Assembly: GCA_947085015.1 (NCBI GenBank)
Contig: CAMTUV010000005.1
Location: 63 to 64,062, forward strand
Direction of reading: 5' to 3'
DNA length: 64,000 nt
Source of the DNA: an uncultured Nitrospirota bacterium
GTDB lineage: Bacteria; Nitrospirota; Thermodesulfovibrionia; Thermodesulfovibrionales; UBA6898
Made by a program: the position numbers and the translations under genes
The notes under the pieces: generated by a model
The model's database searches: none
What the model was told of the DNA's origin: nothing
Seen by the model: only the letters and a program-made list of their open reading frames with translations
Shown here: positions 26,318 to 44,420 of the stretch, piece by piece
Layout of the letters: every line of letters begins with the position of its first letter
Position numbering within the stretch: the stretch's first letter is position 1

Positions 26318-26611
26318 TTACGTTCCTGTATATCCGGCTTCTTTGCAATGGCGCACAGCAACAATATATACCACATCTCCATGAATCCTGTAGCGGAGCA
26401 GATATCCGGCTGAGCCGAAAGGAATGACAAGGTCACGGTAGTCCGGCATATCCTCCACCGGTTTGCCGATAAGCGGTGTTGCTTCAAGGGCTACAACTGC
26501 GGCCCTAATAACCTTCACTGCGCGTTGAGCTGCTTCTCTGTTATGGGGCAGAATGAACTCCCTGAGCCTTTGAAGATCATGAACCGCCGGGATAAGCCAT
26601 TGTATCTTCAC
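26318..26611 (-). CDS. type II toxin, ParE/RelE family
   Basis: 97 aa. A..DL..L..FI...N..AA......I......L...P..G.. ..YR.LV.....GY.LRYR...D.VYIV.VRH is ParE-like. It overlaps the antitoxin stop by 4 nt. Confidence 0.7.
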   Translation of the reverse strand: MKIQWLIPAVHDLQRLREFILPHNREAAQRAVKVIRAAVVALEATPLIGKPVEDMPDYRDLVIPFGSAGYLLRYRIHGDVVYIVAVRHCKEAGYTGT

Positions 26612-26886
26612 TTAGGGGCCTTAAGTTCCTTGTCAGTCCCCCAGGAGTCAAGCCATTCCTTTACAGCCTTGTCGGAGATTGATCTGCCGGTCTGGCTGAA
26701 CTCCTCCCAGCGGCCAACTGTCTCCTGTTTGAACAGCTCCGCCGCCTCCTCACGCTCAAGATACTGACTAATTGCCTCTTTGGCCAGCCAGTGAGCCGTC
26801 CTTTTTTTTGCTTCTCCAAGTCTTTTAAGCCTTTCCCTATCGGTTTCGGGCAGCTTTATCGCCATTGGTCTCGCTTGCGTCTGCAT
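26608..26886 (-). CDS. ribbon-helix-helix (CopG/ParD-like) antitoxin
   Basis: 92 aa. The N-terminal beta-strand/helix pattern IKLPETDRERLKRLGEAKKRTAHWLAKEAISQYLER is typical of RHH. GAGGAGG lies upstream. Confidence 0.65.
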   Translation of the reverse strand: MQTQARPMAIKLPETDRERLKRLGEAKKRTAHWLAKEAISQYLEREEAAELFKQETVGRWEEFSQTGRSISDKAVKEWLDSWGTDKELKAPK

Positions 26887-30300: not shown

Positions 30301-30536
30301 TCAACCCTTGTCAGCTTGCGGAAGGCATCTTCAAGCGCTTCCGCTGGCAAATCGGGATTGAGAATTACAAGGGCCTGATGCAGACGGTTTTCGAGGATTA
30401 CATCACGGTAATTCGGATCGCTGCGCTCAGCGCCAAGCATGCCCACTGCGATGTCGGGGCCGTGCAGCACAGCATAGCCGAGAGATTCCAGCCAGGCAAG
30501 GGTGGCGTCTTCGACTACTGATTCGGTAAAAGTCAT
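27396..30536 (-). CDS. hsdR: type I restriction endonuclease subunit R
   Basis: I trimmed the start to the ATG at 30536 ([21 protein letters not shown], typical HsdR N-terminus). SF2 helicase motifs are [18 protein letters not shown] and QAIARVNR. Confidence 0.9.
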
Positions 30537-30543
30537 CGACCTG

Positions 30544-31095
30544 CTATGAAAGCAGCCCCCACTGCTTGTAGGCCTCACGCGAGTAGTAGTTCAATGCAGT
30601 GTTTGGCTGTTTTGTGTGGCTAAATTGACTTATCGCATCCAAGAGCGGTGCCTTCTTGAAAGGAATATGAATAACCTTCGCTGTCTTGTTATTGATTCGG
30701 TCAGCCAGTGCTTTCGGCCATAGCGGAGAGAACTTGGCCGGTTCTAAAATCGGCCCATAGTCGGGATAAACCGCAATTATCGGAATCTCGTAGGTGTCGA
30801 CTGCTGCACATATCTCGAATGGTACCCAATCCGTGTCAAATCGGGTTGTTTCCCCGATTATCAACACCATGTTCTTCGAATTTCTGAGTCGTTCTAAAAG
30901 CGATGCCCTTAATGTAGCCTTCTTGCTTGAATCGCGAACCGACGACGCTTTGTCGTGGCTGTTGATCATGGTGAAGTCATCATCAGTCTTAGCAGACCAG
31001 GCCTTCATTAGGTTGTAATAATCCATGTCTGACTTGCCAGGCAGGTTCGTGCCCTGCGCGTGAAATGCCACATAGGTGCCGTTGCGGTATGCCAT
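30544..31095 (-). CDS. TIR-like domain protein (DUF1863/ThsB-type)
   Basis: 183 aa. TYVAFHA...MKAW....[34 protein letters not shown] follows the pattern I recall for DUF1863 TIR-like proteins (FxSFHY..vvLIGs.T..r.WV.yEI). Glu94 (30814-30816) sits at the putative catalytic position. Confidence 0.55.
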
Positions 31096-31097
31096 GG

Positions 31098-31931
31098 TTA
31101 CACCTCCCAGTGTTGCTTGACGTCTCTCAAATCAAGCTCCTCAAACCGATCGCGTGACAAGACAATCCTAATTCTTTGTGTCACCGGCTTCGCCTTCGTT
31201 TCAGTGATAGCAGAGAGAATGATCAGATTGAGAAGGTCGCGAGTGGGCAAGCCGAGTCCCGAAAGACCACTACCGACGAGCGGAACATTTAGCGGATCAC
31301 CGCCCGATTCTATCCGAGCGCGCTGCCATAACTGATGCAGGGCAACCCACATCATTGTTACATCTGAATACGCTTTGCTCGTAGCTGGATCCGTTTTCGC
31401 AAAAGCGAACGCGATATACCTGTCCTTTTCTGCAGTAATCAATGCGCTGGTTCCAATCGCATAACTCGTTGACTTGCCTTCTGGTCTTTCGATCTGATTT
31501 CCTTCAACGCCCTTGAGTTGTTCATTAACCTGTTTATCAAAAGGCTCCGGGTGTCCGCCGAAGCACTTGTTGAGAAATATGCCATGCAAACTCTTATCGG
31601 ATACAGGCTTCCCGAGTTGACTGTCGAAAAACTCATTAACCGCAATGGCGCGCATACCCTCTTGCTGAAACAAATCACCGAAGAGCACTTGAATGGTGGT
31701 GTTCGAATTGGATACTTTTATATCAACGGCAGACGGTTTCCATATTTGTTTGAGCGCATAGCCAAGGCTTATCAGTATGATGGCGCCAAGTGCAATAAGT
31801 CCCTTGATCTGAATTCCGGGAACGAAGTAAGTCAGGCCCTCGGTAAGCGTCCAAAGGACGCTGAAGGATACGAATGCGTGGCGGATTGTCTTCCACGGGT
31901 GATTTCTGATTCCATTCCATAGATCATTCAT
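31098..31931 (-). CDS. membrane-anchored Macro-like domain protein (type II Thoeris ThsA-like)
   Basis: 277 aa with two N-terminal hydrophobic helices (AFVSFSVLWTLTEGLTYFV, GLIALGAIILISLGYAL). Next come GDLFQQEGMRAIAVNEFFD and NVPLVGSGLSGLGLP, which mirror the macro-domain GDI..IVNaaN and P.i.tG..G motifs. Confidence 0.5.
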   Translation of the reverse strand: MNDLWNGIRNHPWKTIRHAFVSFSVLWTLTEGLTYFVPGIQIKGLIALGAIILISLGYALKQIWKPSAVDIKVSNSNTTIQVLFGDLFQQEGMRAIAVNEFFDSQLGKPVSDKSLHGIFLNKCFGGHPEPFDKQVNEQLKGVEGNQIERPEGKSTSYAIGTSALITAEKDRYIAFAFAKTDPATSKAYSDVTMMWVALHQLWQRARIESGGDPLNVPLVGSGLSGLGLPTRDLLNLIILSAITETKAKPVTQRIRIVLSRDRFEELDLRDVKQHWEV

Positions 31932-32884
31932 GGCTTTTCCTCGATTAGTTTGAATAGTTGCTCGCCTGTAGACTTGAGAGTTGAGATCAGTGCGTATACC
32001 TCTTCGACCTGAATCTGAACCTTGCGGCCCACGACGGCAGTACTATCGCCGGTGATCTTCAAGTAGTTTTCGTCGATTATCCCCATCTTATGAGCAAGTA
32101 TGTGACGTTTTTGGAAACAGCGCAGCACTATATCCCACCTTTTTGCATCAAGGTTCGCCGCAAAATCCACACCAAACAGCTCGTTTACCCGTTCACGCGC
32201 AGTAGTAATATTTTGAAACCGGATTTCGGCTGCCCTCTCAGGCGCAACAGCTCGCGAGCAAAAGACTCGACACGTCTCACGCCCGAAGCCGTCAAACGCT
32301 GACACACAATCCTCCAGACTATTCTCAATGAGACTCTGCGCTATCGCCTGTTCCTGCGTCTCGGCAATGGTAATCATCTTCTCCACAAGCTGCAAGTTCG
32401 CCTTCAGAATTTGCAATGAGTTGTGTGCACCGCAGTCAGGGCAGAAGCCGAACACACCGTAGATCATATAGCGAAGCGTGCATTGATCACATACTACTTC
32501 CGTCTCAAGTTGCTTCTCCCGGTAGTAATAAATCGGCGTTGGCTGGCCAGATACTTTCATGCTGATACCGATACCGAAAGCGCCACGCGGGCGGTGGTCA
32601 AACTCCAGCGATTTCAAGTCCTTCAATAATGCGCCAGTGACTTGGTTCAGCACTATAGACTGGGCGTATTCTATCTGCGCCTTCGTAAAGAACTTGTCCT
32701 GATTCGCCTCATGACCACAGTAGGGACAGTGGCAAGGCAGGTTTTCACCTTTCAGGCCAGTGCCGAGTTGAATCTTGAAGTAGCTTTCGCACTCGGGGAC
32801 GGGGCACTCCCGGCCAACAAGTCCATCTTCATCAGGTGGAATTGTGATGCTGATTTGGGATGCCAGATTTTCAAGATGCCTCAT
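31928..32884 (-). CDS. double zinc-ribbon protein with C-terminal helical domain carrying an Rx4H motif, function unknown
   Basis: 318 aa. CPVPEC..x19..CHCPYC and CDQC..x13..CPDC. KRHILAHK (R260-H265, 32090-32107). Both ends overlap neighbouring genes by 4 nt (ATGA). Confidence 0.6.
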   Translation of the reverse strand: MRHLENLASQISITIPPDEDGLVGRECPVPECESYFKIQLGTGLKGENLPCHCPYCGHEANQDKFFTKAQIEYAQSIVLNQVTGALLKDLKSLEFDHRPRGAFGIGISMKVSGQPTPIYYYREKQLETEVVCDQCTLRYMIYGVFGFCPDCGAHNSLQILKANLQLVEKMITIAETQEQAIAQSLIENSLEDCVSAFDGFGRETCRVFCSRAVAPERAAEIRFQNITTARERVNELFGVDFAANLDAKRWDIVLRCFQKRHILAHKMGIIDENYLKITGDSTAVVGRKVQIQVEEVYALISTLKSTGEQLFKLIEEKP

Positions 32885-34173
32885 GCTTGGGCCTCAATTT
32901 TCATCATCCTCTTAGGTATACGCAGTTCACCGGAGATGAGCTTGAACAGTAGCGTATCACGAATGGAGGCAAGGGACCTGGATTCTTCATGTGCTGCATG
33001 TGTCTTTGCGAATATAGGTTGCACCAGCTTACCGAAAAGCTTCGCAACCTTTTCGGATGGCGTGGTCATTTTGAAGTGTGAAAGTGACTCTGCGGGAACT
33101 CGTTGCCGACCACTTGAACCCGTCATACTTTGAATCGCGAAATCTCGGAACTCCTCACTGCGCGCCAAGCAATAGGCGAACTCTGCAGGAAGTGGCGGCT
33201 TAGGACGCAGGACGATATATTCAGTCGATCCCCAGCCAACTTGATCATTTTTGAGAAAGTCAACGTATGCAGTTTTGCCGTTTTCAAGACAGGGTGTAAT
33301 TCGAGCGACTAAGGTATCTCCATTGATGAACCGCATTCCTGAACCAAAGGCGCGCTCTATTACCATGTCAGGTGAGTGCCCCTGCGTCGGCATATTTGAC
33401 ATGTCGAGATATGGCGCAAGCGAGCCTTTGCACAACTGCCGCGTAGGATTAACCTCTATCGCCTCGGGCAGAGGTGTGAGGCTCCACCCTTTCGGAATCT
33501 CCCCCAGCTCGGAGTCCTCGAAGGAATCGGGGAAAAGATCGGCGATATGTTTCGGCAGGCCAGTGTCACGGCCTTCGGCCTTGGCACGGACGGGGTCGAA
33601 GTCCACGAACCACGATTTGAAAAGCGCCCGCGCCATCGCCTCCAGCGTCTCGTTCATCCGCCGGTTCAGTTCTATCTTGTCGTCCAGCGTGCCGAGGATG
33701 TGGGCAATAGTGCGTTGTTCTGGCAGAGTTGGAAGCGTGAGGGTTATCTTGCGAAGTTCGCTTTGTTTGATCCCCAGCACTGTAGTTCCGGTAGCTCGCG
33801 CGAGAAGCTGATCTTGAACATCCGCAGACATCATTAAGAACTTTAGAAACGTGTTGTCGAGAATATCAGGTTTGCCACGGAGTGTAATCAGCCTTTGTGC
33901 TAATGCAATCCGTTCTGTCCCAAGTTGCGCAATTTCGCCTAACGGTGCTTCGGTGGTCATAACCACATCGCCAGCAATAGGCATCCCCCGCCTCATCCAA
34001 GAACCATAATCATCGGGTGCTATAAATTCATCTGGAGTTTCAATTCTGCCTCTCTTAACGACTTTTGCAGTAACCAGTGGAATTCCCCATGATGTCTTTT
34101 GCGGTGTTTTCCCACGGTAGTCAATTATTGCCGCCATTGAATCTTCCAATGTCCGAGTTGACCATTCACCCAT
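32881..34173 (-). CDS. hsdS: type I restriction-modification specificity subunit
   Basis: 430 aa with two target-recognition halves separated by conserved helical spacers (LPTLPEQRTIAHILGTLDDKIELNRRMNETLE and a C-terminal ..LFKLISGELR). Confidence 0.85.
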   Translation of the reverse strand: MGEWSTRTLEDSMAAIIDYRGKTPQKTSWGIPLVTAKVVKRGRIETPDEFIAPDDYGSWMRRGMPIAGDVVMTTEAPLGEIAQLGTERIALAQRLITLRGKPDILDNTFLKFLMMSADVQDQLLARATGTTVLGIKQSELRKITLTLPTLPEQRTIAHILGTLDDKIELNRRMNETLEAMARALFKSWFVDFDPVRAKAEGRDTGLPKHIADLFPDSFEDSELGEIPKGWSLTPLPEAIEVNPTRQLCKGSLAPYLDMSNMPTQGHSPDMVIERAFGSGMRFINGDTLVARITPCLENGKTAYVDFLKNDQVGWGSTEYIVLRPKPPLPAEFAYCLARSEEFRDFAIQSMTGSSGRQRVPAESLSHFKMTTPSEKVAKLFGKLVQPIFAKTHAAHEESRSLASIRDTLLFKLISGELRIPKRMMKIEAQA

Positions 34174-34178
34174 TCCGG

Positions 34179-34409
34179 TTACTCCCTTTCATTCCGTCCA
34201 TAAACCAGCACCGCCTGTTCTGCCTGATCGGCCTTTTCCGGGGGCGCATCATCAAATCGGCCGATGTACCATGCAGGTTTTTCTTCAGGCATAATGGCGA
34301 TCTGCTTCACCATGGTGATGTCATCATAACCATTTTCATACCCCAATACGATTACACGGAGATCAGGAGGATAATTCTGCAATGCTGCTATCAGTTCTTT
34401 AACAGTCAT
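34179..34409 (-). CDS. small hypothetical protein (76 aa)
   Basis: The ATG at 34409 lies 5 nt after GGAGGG (MTVKELIAALQNYPPDLRVIV..). No family recognised. Confidence 0.45.
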   Translation of the reverse strand: MTVKELIAALQNYPPDLRVIVLGYENGYDDITMVKQIAIMPEEKPAWYIGRFDDAPPEKADQAEQAVLVYGRNERE

Positions 34410-34429
34410 ATGGTCCCTCCGCAAATCCT

Positions 34430-34870
34430 TTAACTCCCATAAATACGAAAATCCACAAACTCACGTATTCTTAGAAAATCCTTTTCATTTTTTGTAAGCA
34501 CAAACGCCCCAATTCTCCGGGCAGAGCAGGCGATAAGAATGTCATTTTGCAGACGGGAAAGATATGTTGAGTCATACCCGTATTTCTTTCCGCTCTTCGC
34601 GATGATGCCGCCCGTTTGACGCCAGTCATCGTCGTTGGGAACTATCAGTCGTCCGACATTGTGGAAGGTCTGATACAGCTTATCGAGAAGTTTAATGGAC
34701 TGGCTGTCATGCGCTCCGGCGTAAAGCTCAGAGACGACAACCGAACTCATGTATAGTAATGGCGCAGAGGTCTCACTAAAAACCGCCGGATGCGCTATGC
34801 CCTGATTTATGAAAGGGATATATATCGAGGTATCACAAATAACCTTAAACGGATAGTCTGCCAAAGACAT
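34430..34870 (-). CDS. vapC: PIN-domain toxin, VapC family
   Basis: 146 aa with acidic PIN residues in context (VICDTS.., ..SVVVSELY.., ..NDILIA..). Confidence 0.8.
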   Translation of the reverse strand: MSLADYPFKVICDTSIYIPFINQGIAHPAVFSETSAPLLYMSSVVVSELYAGAHDSQSIKLLDKLYQTFHNVGRLIVPNDDDWRQTGGIIAKSGKKYGYDSTYLSRLQNDILIACSARRIGAFVLTKNEKDFLRIREFVDFRIYGS

Positions 34871-35054
34871 CCTCTATTTTCCCCTTGCCCCTTACCGCGG
34901 CAAGCGTTTTCTGAATTTTCTCGTTGGCAATTACCATATCAAGGGCTTTATTGATCGCCTCAGTGTCGGTAACGGCATGGGTAATCCGCCTGACCATCTC
35001 AATTTTGCCGGGTTCAAGAAGAAACTGTTTTCTTACTTTTGCTGCTGTCTGCAT
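34845..35054 (-). CDS. VapB-type antitoxin (putative)
   Basis: 69 aa. It overlaps the vapC start by 26 nt. Small helical protein in the canonical antitoxin position. Confidence 0.55.
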   Translation of the reverse strand: MQTAAKVRKQFLLEPGKIEMVRRITHAVTDTEAINKALDMVIANEKIQKTLAAVRGKGKIEDVFGRLSV

Positions 35055-35110: not shown

Positions 35111-36700
35111 TTATCGGTAAAAGCCAAGCTCCTTCAGGTTGCCAGCGATAGCTGCGTCCAGTTTCGCGGCTTCCATTTGTTGCTCGCGCAACGTTGCGGC
35201 GAGCCGCTTCATCTTCTCTTCGAAAGGTTCTCCATCATCCTCTACAGCTTCCGCGCCCACATACCTGCCAGGCGTGAGAACATGGCCGTGTTTGCGTATA
35301 TCGTCAATTTTAGCGGCCTTGCAGAAGCCGGGGATGTCCTTATACCCCTCACCCCCGCCCTCTCCCTCAAGGGGCGAGGGAGAATTTCGATCGCCGCGCC
35401 AGGCGTGGTACGTGCCTGCGATTTTAGCGAGGTCCTCATCTGTCAATTCCCGGTGCACGCGATCCACCAACGAGCCCATTTTGCGGGCGTCGATGAAAAG
35501 CGTCTCGCCTCGCCGGTCACGGAAACGTCCGTTTTTCTTATTGCGGGCAATGAACCAGAGGCAAACCGGGATCTGCGTCGAATAGAAAAGTTGGCCCGGT
35601 AAGGCAACCATGCAGTCAACAAGGTCTGCTTCAATGATGGCCTTACGAATCTCACCCTCGCCCGACTGGTTGGACGACATCGAGCCGTTGGCAAGCACAA
35701 AGCCGGCTAACCCGGTAGGCGCTAAGTGATAGATGAAATGTTGCACCCAGGCGTAGTTGGCATTACTTGCAGGCGGCACGCCATAGACCCAGCGTTTGTC
35801 GTCCTTTAGCAACTCTCCACGCCAGTCACTATCATTAAACGGCGGATTGGCTAACACGTAATCCGCTTTGAGGTCGGGGTGTGCGTCATTATGGAAAGTA
35901 TCACCATGGCCGATCTGAGCATCAATACCCCGGATGGCAAGATTCATCTTGGCTAAGCGCCATGTCGTGTAGTTGGACTCCTGACCGTAGATGGAGATGT
36001 CGCCGAGCTTGCCGCTGTGAGCTTCGATGAATTTCTCGCTCGATACGAACATACCGCCTGAGCCGCAGCAGGGATCATAAACACGGCCTTTATAAGGCGC
36101 GAGCATCTCGACCAGCACGCGCACCACGCTGGAGGGCGTGTAGAACTGGCCACCACTCTTGCCCTCTGCGCTGGCAAAGCGCGAAAGGAAGTATTCATAC
36201 ACGCGCCCTAACGTGTCCTTTGCACGGTCAAGCGCACTGCCGAGCGCAATGTCACTTACCAGATTGATGATCTGACCTAAGCGCTGTTTGTCGAGCCCTG
36301 GCCTGGCAAAATCTTTGGGTAACACGCTTTTGAGAGAAGGATTATCACGCTCTATTGCCGTCATCGCATCATCTATTAGTTTACCGATGGTCGGCTGCGG
36401 CGCACTCCCTTTGAGATGTGCCCAGCGCGCCTCCTTCGGAACCCAGAAAATGCTCGCTGCGCGATACTCATCAGGGTCTTCGGGGTCAGCTCCCTGGGAT
36501 TTCTGCGACTCAAGCTCTGCATGCTTAGCTTCGAAAGCATCGGAGATATACTTGAGGAAGATCAGACCGAGGACAACGTGCTTATACTCTGCAGCATCCA
36601 TGTTGTTGCGGAGTGCGTCAGCAGAGGCCCAGAGCTTAGCCTCGAACCCGACATTGGCCCCAGTATCGTTATTCACATTCTTTTTCTGCTGCCTTACCAT
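35111..36700 (-). CDS. hsdM: type I restriction-modification DNA methyltransferase subunit M
   Basis: 529 aa. HsdM N-terminal domain ([32 protein letters not shown]), SAM motif DPCCGSGGM and catalytic NPPF ([11 protein letters not shown]). Confidence 0.9.
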
Positions 36701-44335: not shown

Positions 44336-44420
44336 TGGTGCCGAAGGCGGGACTCGAACCCGCATGGATTTCTCCACACGCCCCTCAAACGTGCGTGTCT
44401 ACCAGTTCCACCACTTCGGC
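44336..44420 (-). tRNA. tRNA-Leu (anticodon GAG), type II, encoded CCA
   Basis: Hand-folded on the minus strand. Acceptor stem gccgaag/cttcggc, anticodon stem cacgt/gcgtg with loop ttGAGgg, long variable arm, and T-arm gcgggttcgagtcccgc. Confidence 0.85.

Follow-up and report, generated by a model that had tools for sequence, protein, structure and literature searches.

Two probably independent defence modules, an unannotated zinc-ribbon/HEPN-like family and type II Thoeris, stacked between hsdS and hsdR of a type I restriction–modification operon

Two kinds of described system are relevant to the locus presented here: type II Thoeris, in which ThsB senses infection and the membrane-spanning part of ThsA kills or arrests the cell, and defence genes embedded in type I restriction–modification (R-M) operons, with the gene order hsdM-hsdS-prrC-hsdR of EcoprrI as the classical case. 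Type II Thoeris works as a two-gene system, in which the His-ADPR (histidine-ADP-ribose) made by the TIR protein binds the Macro domain of ThsA (bioRxiv 10.1101/2024.01.03.573942). As for embedded genes, PrrC is almost exclusively found within type I R-M systems (Payne et al. 2024, bioRxiv 10.1101/2024.01.29.577857), DarTG2 lies between hsdS and hsdR in the RRDM island of enteropathogenic Escherichia coli (PMC12255303) and TgvAB does so in VPI-2 of Vibrio cholerae (PMC11411939); the hsdS-hsdR site had earlier been put forward as a hotspot at which defence systems recombine (PMC12255303). The stretch of DNA analysed here, called the window, comprises 64,000 nucleotides (nt) of contig CAMTUV010000005.1 (assembly GCA_947085015.1) from an uncultured Nitrospirota bacterium. 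It encodes a type I R-M operon in which hsdS and hsdR are separated by three genes: orf318, from an unannotated family, and orf277 and orf183, a Thoeris pair. The reading that we consider probable is that two independent defence modules, orf318 and type II Thoeris, are stacked in a recombination-driven cargo slot between hsdS and hsdR.

Much of this is already known: the Thoeris pair itself is, and so is the placement of defence genes in the hsdS-hsdR gap (PrrC, DarTG2, TgvAB, Payne et al.). An earlier note on this DNA, made from the sequence alone, had taken such nesting to be undescribed, a view with which the reports on PrrC, DarTG2 (PMC12255303) and TgvAB (PMC11411939) and the survey of embedded genes (bioRxiv 10.1101/2024.01.29.577857) are at odds. 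Novelty lies in the orf318 family: widespread and uncharacterised, it varies the theme of HEPN toxins embedded in R-M systems and marks a variable defence slot.

The genes of the R-M operon and the three genes enclosed between hsdS and hsdR are listed below. Coordinates are window positions, unless preceded by the number (L) of another locus, and all listed operon genes lie on the minus strand.

35111-36700, minus strand: hsdM, methyltransferase subunit, 529 amino acids (aa), Pfam N6_Mtase 4.5e-110 and HsdM_N 4.3e-26
32881-34173, minus strand: hsdS, specificity subunit, 430 aa, Methylase_S 4.2e-16
31928-32884, minus strand: orf318, unannotated family, double zinc ribbon (N-terminal) and HEPN-like helical bundle (C-terminal)
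31098-31931, minus strand: orf277, thsA, transmembrane (TM) segment(s) at about residues 19-62 and Macro domain at residues 80-258
30544-31095, minus strand: orf183, thsB, TIR-like, putative catalytic E94 at 30814-30816
30536 (ATG) to 27396, minus strand: hsdR, restriction/translocase subunit, 1046 aa, HSDR_N 9.2e-46, SWI2_SNF2 1.2e-79 and T1RH-like_C 7.7e-140

HsdM, HsdS and HsdR are encoded on the same strand with their expected Pfam domains, hence an intact type I R-M operon, and alignments of hsdR homologs begin at the ATG at 30536. The order given in the earlier note (hsdM, vapB-like, vapC, orf76, hsdS, orf318, orf277, orf183, hsdR) was confirmed, each open reading frame (ORF) being found at its reported position. 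The tight junctions that it described were re-read identically: the hsdS stop and the orf318 start overlap as ATGA (32881-32884), the orf318 stop and the orf277 start overlap in the same way (31928-31931), orf277 and orf183 are 2 nt apart (GGGAGGTG-TAA-cc-ATG) and the TAG of orf183 is followed after 7 nt by the ATG of hsdR. The motifs that it had pointed out, i.e. the cysteines and R260/H265 of orf318, the macro-like motifs of orf277 and E94 of orf183, are likewise present. A single transcription unit for the whole operon is plausible; in a consensus scan of 27-37 kb, promoter- and terminator-like sites were no commoner than in shuffled sequence.

On sequence grounds, the pair formed by orf277 and orf183 is canonical type II Thoeris, an already-known system. 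The orf277 product matches ThsA_Macro (PF20016, 1e-45) with residues 80-258, equivalent to profile positions 1-182 of 183, and the PADLOC ThsA model (PDLC00410, 3.7e-126) over its full length, and the orf183 product matches ThsB_TIR (PF08937, 8.9e-16) and PADLOC ThsB (5.1e-67). The macro and TIR-like assignments of the earlier note are therefore significant in Pfam with PADLOC in agreement, and its proposal of a Thoeris-II-like pair within a type I R-M operon stands, as the pair is canonical, the operon intact and intergenic space absent. Its claim of two N-terminal TM helices in ThsA is borne out, more clearly for one than for the other: in Kyte-Doolittle profiles with a 19-residue window, a strong segment covers residues ~42-62 (centre ~42-56, up to 2.09), while the other, at residues ~19-37, is weaker (1.28 about residue 28). 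The ThsA motifs FGDLF..AIAVNEFFD and VPLVGSGLSGLGLP were located, and FSVLWT and the residues after it are conserved among homologs. ThsB E94, in WVPFEI, is invariant in alignment A4, divergent ThsB-like proteins included, and we take it to be the equivalent of the TIR catalytic glutamate. With the type II Thoeris of Bacillus amyloliquefaciens Y2, the window pair shares full-length ThsA_Macro and ThsB_TIR profiles, the thsA-thsB order, the N-terminal hydrophobic segments of ThsA and the invariant glutamate of ThsB. Its architecture shows no difference; only its location is distinct, the window subfamily being very often found between hsdS and hsdR. Identities between the window ThsA and ThsA proteins elsewhere range from 55 to 94%. 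In the closest relative of the window locus (L045 1434-3774, compared with 30544-32884) they amount to 94% for ThsA, 89% for orf318 and 75% for ThsB; the low value for ThsB would fit a TIR sensor that diversifies faster.

The relationship of orf318 to Thoeris was examined in both directions. The forward sample consists of 44 genome loci encoding orf318 homologs. Thirty-six of them contain hsd genes, typically arranged as hsdM-hsdS-orf318-[1-6 kb gap]-hsdR, and the homolog overlaps the ORF 5′ of it as NTGA in 31 of the 40 loci where this could be evaluated. ThsA and ThsB fill the orf318-hsdR gap in five loci (L014, L020, L021, L022 and L027). Elsewhere the gap holds SIR2 with HerA, a CBASS cyclase with a 2TM effector, several TIR proteins, SieB with TIR, GmrSD, RhuM, HEC-01A-type ABC ATPases, DUF3800, SIR2 with DUF4268, TIR with SLFN/AlbA_2, an HTH-M78 protein, YhcG or unidentified proteins, which brings the distinct types of cargo after orf318 to about 20; in L013 and L023 the gap is without cargo. 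The reverse sample consists of 54 metagenome loci centred on ThsA homologs (48-88% identity). ThsB follows ThsA in 32/33 loci, and hsdR is found downstream in 11 of the 15 with enough sequence, so that this Thoeris subfamily is strongly R-M-embedded. Yet of the 28 loci that could be evaluated, only 8 have orf318 upstream of ThsA. At least seven loci (L053, L054, L055, L060, L085, L091 and L092) have hsdS directly adjoining ThsA with no orf318, and hsd genes are lacking altogether in at least eight. Finally, in a neighbour-joining tree of orf318 homologs, Thoeris-linked members occupy at least five positions amid members linked to other cargo. orf318 and Thoeris are thus independent both ways, and neither module requires the other.

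These distributions bear directly on the idea, put forward in the earlier note, that orf318 is an extra component of the Thoeris pair, i.e. that orf318, ThsA and ThsB form an integrated three-component Thoeris-like system wired into R-M, with orf318 as an additional sensor or a second effector. The orf318/thsA ATGA overlap in the window, in L045 (89% identity) and in L103-L105 would suit such a system, as would the rank of Thoeris as the most frequent single cargo after orf318 (5/44 genome loci, and 12 loci of the ThsA-centred sample) and its prevalence in one hsd clade. We nevertheless regard it as most unlikely, since orf318 occurs with about 20 other types of cargo or none, ThsAB occurs without orf318 both in and outside hsd operons, a 109-aa ORF or a spacer parts orf318 from ThsA in many Thoeris loci, the phylogenies of orf318 and its cargo are incongruent, and published type II Thoeris is functional with two genes (bioRxiv 10.1101/2024.01.03.573942). 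The neighbourhood check (Thoeris in 5/44, ThsAB without orf318, Thoeris-linked members scattered in the tree) thus does not sustain the claim.

The ORF just mentioned, of about 109 aa and conserved (MSDEIPIQSRDYWFKVIEMLQQNWALID...), has its start in an ATGA overlap with the end of orf318 in a particular set of loci (L021 3211-3540; L027 846-1175; L014 10982-11308; L023 10900-11262; L076 7651-7968; L081 7645-7962; L082 3196-3522). It is placed between orf318 and ThsA, and in L023 directly 5′ of hsdR. L013, L022 and L041 retain degenerate remnants of it; the ORF matches nothing in Pfam or PADLOC and is absent from the window.

Several observations weigh against the independence of the two modules or the sampling behind it. 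Thoeris prevails after orf318 in one hsd clade, whose hsdM is ~28% identical to that of the window, and both the window and L045 have the ATGA overlap of orf318 with thsA; a lineage-specific functional link between orf318 and Thoeris could therefore still exist. In the slots of L001-L044, TIR or SIR2 proteins make up 8 of the ~20 types of cargo (Thoeris, SIR2-HerA, SIR2 with DUF4268, four kinds of TIR protein and a ThsB-like pair), a share that might hint at a non-random relationship with orf318. This share may also just mirror how common such proteins are in defence. Lastly, many loci come from metagenome-assembled genomes, and some are near-duplicates (L034/35/43/44 and L074/75).

The boundaries of the cassettes suggest how the two modules came to be neighbours. 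The HsdS C-terminal tail of the window (..SRSLASIRDTLLFKLISGELRI..) is of the type found 5′ of orf318 homologs, and the earlier note saw in the tight junctions a probable translational wiring of the cassette into the R-M enzyme. Where orf318 is absent, however, ThsA begins in an ATGA overlap with this very hsdS tail, so that translational coupling belongs to the slot, or to the hsdS tail, rather than to orf318. A specific partnership of HsdS with orf318, considered on account of the overlap, was rejected for the same reason. In 14 loci, a stretch of 75-90 nt right after the orf318 stop translates to the C-terminal tail of HsdS (..SRTLATLRDTLLPKLLSGEL..). These copies encode ..SRTLAxLRDxLLPKLLSGEL.., sometimes as an intact mini-ORF of ~35 aa, the stop of which overlaps the next ATG, and one of them is annotated as a 38-aa gene. 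Since they are intact in some loci and frame-broken in others, they are best taken as decaying duplicates of the hsdS 3′ end. The remnant preserves the 'tail-ATGA-cargo' junction and reads as a recombination scar at the cassette boundary. On the right-hand side, these scars have their counterpart in short fragments resembling the hsdR N-terminus, which come after cargo genes and are followed by more cargo or by hsdR proper.

L002 3775-3885: hsdS-tail remnant
L005 3445-3555: hsdS-tail remnant
L047 2034-2150: hsdS-tail remnant (with 11 more loci)
L001 13915-14106: hsdR N-terminus fragment
L014 12738-12989: hsdR N-terminus fragment
L010 8827-8901: hsdR N-terminus fragment
L065 9391-9603: hsdR N-terminus fragment

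Both types of remnant, the coupling owned by the slot and the occurrence of orf318 as second gene of the slot in L002, L010, L025 and L045 indicate, on the evidence of sequence, that recombination at the hsdS-3′ and hsdR-5′ flanks drives the exchange and stacking of cassettes. The window itself is a clean end state free of remnants, a direct-repeat check having found no hsdS-tail remnant at its locus. DarTG2 and TgvAB share with this locus the slot, the logic of the operon and the recombination hotspot that has been proposed; the cargo is different, and those reports mention neither a conserved slot-leading gene nor hsdS-tail remnants between stacked cassettes.

The usual place of orf318 at the head of the slot, with variable cargo behind it, also raises the question of its being no effector at all, but a sensor or adaptor of the slot that watches the type I enzyme or the anti-restriction proteins of phages and licenses whatever cargo lies downstream. 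This view, which we find very improbable, gains from the near-restriction of the family to restriction-type operons, the DISARM-like L030 included, from the frequency of TIR and SIR2 cargo and from the stand-alone form of the N-domain known as PADLOC candidate PDC-M14A, with a different partner gene. It fits poorly with L013 and L023, where there is no cargo to license, with the loci where orf318 comes second (L002, L010, L025, L045) and with those where cargo occupies the same slot without orf318. Furthermore, Thoeris, CBASS, SIR2-HerA and GmrSD are known as self-sufficient, and the conserved RHxxxH motif suggests a catalytic effector over a pure adaptor.

Divergent relatives of orf318 are found in the DISARM-like locus L030 or next to genes for P-loop NTPase, HipA, AIPR and GIY-YIG proteins. 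The homolog in L030 (6297-20272) is 55% identical; its locus also encodes a SNF2 helicase carrying NOV_C, a methyltransferase of the DUF1156 type and a DUF499 protein that begins with a Swt1-like HEPN domain. Proteins of the slots without any Pfam or PADLOC match were also recorded in L046 (9070-12873, 1,267 aa), L012 (6363-8369, 668 aa), L009 (2398-3603, 401 aa), L030 (11012-12112, 366 aa) and L019 (7378-8523, a 381-aa partner of a HEC-01A-like ATPase). By the logic of guilt by embedding, such proteins are candidate new defence genes.

The orf318 family is large. Homologs number 2,720 in a database clustered at 90% and form 2,056 clusters at 50% identity; all are unnamed and without a Pfam domain, and the best matches are 65-89% identical and come from many phyla. 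The window protein itself matched no Pfam or NCBIfam family, its sole library match being the PADLOC candidate PDC-M14A (residues 10-154, 3e-18). No homolog was found in the phage genomes searched, and plasmids gave only 'hypothetical proteins' of 26-34% identity outside hsd contexts. The literature search found no description of the family and no paper mentioning PDC-M14. The features of the protein are as follows.

32432-32806, minus strand: zinc-ribbon region of orf318, C27/C32/C53/C56 (CPxxxC..CPYC) and C132/C135/C148/C151 (CxxC..CPDC)
31940-32419, minus strand: C-terminal helical bundle of orf318, putative HEPN RNase domain, residues ~156-315
32090-32107, minus strand: R260-H261-I-L-A-H265, Rx4H motif at the C-terminal end of the third core helix (247-265)

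The eight cysteines are invariant or at least 90% conserved among 74 members of 26-73% identity, and 63 of the 74 gave zinc-ribbon or HypA-type Pfam matches. The AlphaFold2 (AF2) model built from the 74-sequence alignment is confident (predicted local distance difference test, pLDDT, 96.6; predicted template modelling score, pTM, 0.87). It replaces an earlier run on a shallow alignment of 23 close homologs (pLDDT 67.3), in which the N-terminal half was unusable. In the model, this half consists of two beta zinc-ribbon units (beta hairpins) flanking a long helix (residues 68-91). As full-length Pfam scans of the family were swamped by generic zinc-ribbon and HypA matches, the C-terminal domain was scanned separately. 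Ten longer members (411-535 aa), inspected as possible Rosetta-stone fusions, carry no extra domain recognisable by Pfam. Five of about 500 aa (P0121, P0124, P0130, P0245 and P0269) have a proline-rich linker and a C-terminal extension of ~180 aa, with repeated '...EL.E.G.I/V...R' segments that look winged-helix-like by eye and gave no Pfam match.

The C-terminal half is probably a HEPN-like RNase, as judged from the model and its motif. Its topology, taken from the secondary-structure string and not from superposition, comprises helices 156-174, 179-207, 247-265 and 293-315, with an insert at 215-237. Alignments A1 and A3 show the RHxxxH motif without exception, and A2 (74 sequences) conserves it at 90% or more; in helix 2, residues E191, D192, D198, R202 and E203 are invariant. 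HEPN domains are defined by an Rx4-6H motif with a polar residue after the arginine (PMC3710099, Anantharaman et al.). In agreement with that description, orf318 has a core of four helices, the second and third of them separated by an insert, an Rx4H motif that ends helix 3, a polar histidine after the arginine and acidic residues in helix 2. Similarity searches stayed below significance: in Foldseek against the PDB, the highest probabilities went to HEPN proteins (1ylm 0.85, 1jog 0.72 and 2hsb 0.72, with E values of at least 0.26), and 8xeh, 8yuf and 3o10 were further non-significant HEPN matches. The third match in BFVD is a MAE_28990-like HEPN protein (E=0.23), hhalign lines up RHILAH of orf318 with RHKWAH of a Swt1-type HEPN domain (non-significant, E=0.18), and PF18735 HEPN_RiboL-PSP was touched by one of 29 members in the scan of the C-terminal domain (E=1.2e-3). 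A profile search of PDB sequences returned only a chance bacterioferritin match (E=0.88). Against the assignment counts that none of the characterised HEPN proteins matches orf318 significantly, be it in sequence or in structure. The assignment rests accordingly on the motif, its position and the type of fold, and given these weak statistics the protein is named HEPN-like.

A function without any toxin would be that of a type I accessory factor or regulator, for example a zinc-ribbon nucleic-acid binder that controls the expression of hsdR, the alleviation of restriction or the processing of the polycistronic mRNA. In its favour, nucleic acid is a frequent ligand of zinc ribbons, no proven toxin matches orf318 significantly, the gene is stably kept across several hsd families, and its place is after the modification genes (hsdM, hsdS) and before hsdR, a point at which a delay in hsdR expression matters. 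Such a role is quite improbable in our view: most type I operons lack orf318, close relatives with hsdS-ThsA-ThsB-hsdR included, its distant relatives outside R-M (with P-loop NTPase, HipA, AIPR or GIY-YIG neighbours) are distributed as in defence islands, and motif and fold fit the definition of the HEPN RNase active site (PMC3710099).

Three described systems resemble orf318 most closely. With PrrC and RloC it shares its position right after hsdS and before hsdR, its near-exclusive occurrence in R-M loci and an R..H motif of HEPN type in the C-terminal domain. Instead of an N-terminal ABC ATPase, however, it has two zinc ribbons, and scans with Pfam, NCBIfam and PADLOC detected neither a P-loop/ABC match nor similarity to the PADLOC PrrC models; since it is without the ABC ATPase of PrrC, orf318 is not a member of that family. 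The second is HEC-08, in which HEPN and zinc ribbons are combined in one gene embedded in Hma and defence needs the histidine of Rx4-6H (bioRxiv 10.1101/2024.01.29.577857). Judged by domain content, this is the closest validated analogue, as both are single-gene combinations of HEPN(-like) domain and zinc ribbons within multi-gene restriction-like systems. The order of domains is reversed in orf318 (zinc ribbons N-terminal, HEPN-like part C-terminal), its host systems are type I R-M and DISARM as opposed to Hma, and no PADLOC HEC-08 match was obtained. The third, PDC-M14, is an untested two-gene candidate (FAM_02625>>FAM_00494) that was proposed from genes embedded in BREX, DISARM and type I R-M (bioRxiv 10.1101/2024.01.29.577857). 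Residues 10-154 of orf318 match PDC-M14A (3e-18), but this profile of 152 aa covers the zinc-ribbon half only and does not represent the HEPN-like half; among the six window proteins scanned with PADLOC there was no PDC-M14B partner, hence no two-component system of this kind. RptR (PMC12255303), considered as a possible relative, was rejected, being an unrelated 79-aa HTH repressor.

Taken together, the operon would offer layered immunity through restriction, an RNase toxin and NAD-derived signalling, with all genes probably co-transcribed and co-transferred. The first module is orf318, a double zinc ribbon fused to a HEPN-like bundle with the invariant RHxxxH, encoded almost only in restriction-type operons and usually as the first gene after hsdS. 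The chances are about even that it acts as a latent metal-independent RNase and abortive-infection effector, perhaps dependent on the surrounding R-M complex or guarding it in the manner of PrrC; such a dependence or guarding is suggested by its near-confinement to restriction-type operons, as with PrrC. The second module is a standard type II Thoeris pair, a system in which the ThsB TIR makes His-ADPR, this signal is recognised by the ThsA Macro domain and the membrane part kills or arrests the cell. A second line of defence once restriction is defeated, as the earlier note imagined for the whole cassette, is plausible for orf318 alone; Thoeris, whose two genes suffice in other settings, does not call for it. 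A bolder version, unlikely though worth stating, has orf318 stand as a conserved guard over modular 'R-M-plus' immune operons in many bacterial phyla, where the zinc ribbons would dock onto HsdS/HsdM or sense anti-restriction proteins and the HEPN-like part would cleave RNA or license the exchangeable cargo downstream, Thoeris in the window and SIR2-HerA, CBASS or TIR proteins in other loci.

The operon has a second embedded slot, in the hsdM-hsdS gap (34179-35054).

34845-35054, minus strand: VapB-like ORF, VapB_antitoxin E=0.004, sub-threshold (under the Pfam cut-off)
34430-34870, minus strand: PIN/VapC, PIN PF01850 4.5e-07
34179-34424, minus strand: small ORF, 81 aa from TTG or 76 aa from ATG (34179-34409)

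The PIN match upholds the label vapC of the earlier note; its label vapB has the sub-threshold match just listed. The small ORF matched no family in the Pfam, NCBIfam and PADLOC scans. A homolog of 44% identity occurs at the same hsdM-hsdS position in L005 (836-1039), and in L046 this position holds a YhcG nuclease and small ORFs. The hsdM of the window is 63-70% identical to those of orf318-bearing loci. The G+C content is 55% for hsdM and hsdR, 45-50% for the embedded genes and 48.9% for the whole window, a contrast that may reflect different origins of the R-M backbone and the cargo. The search for tRNA genes as an island boundary returned just tRNA-Leu (44336-44420), ~7.6 kb past the hsdM start (36700). 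On the other side, about 500 nt past the hsdR stop (27396), two small overlapping minus-strand ORFs of 97 and 92 aa (26318-26886) look by eye like a RelE/ParE-type toxin and a ribbon-helix-helix antitoxin.

The significance of the locus lies in the orf318 family, with thousands of members in many phyla, unannotated and nearly confined to restriction-type operons, with a confident predicted fold and an invariant HEPN-type motif. In practical terms, orf318 and the remnants of hsdS-3′ and hsdR-5′ flag a slot of cassette exchange, the unmatched occupants of which (1,267, 668, 401, 381 and 109 aa) are anti-phage candidates. If orf318 were indeed a PrrC-like RNase, the idea of a toxin guarding restriction would reach well past one classical E. 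coli case; and should the 'R-M-plus' guard be true, the lone PrrC/Stp example would become a widespread and architecturally distinct class, with orf318 as a genomic anchor for new cargo.

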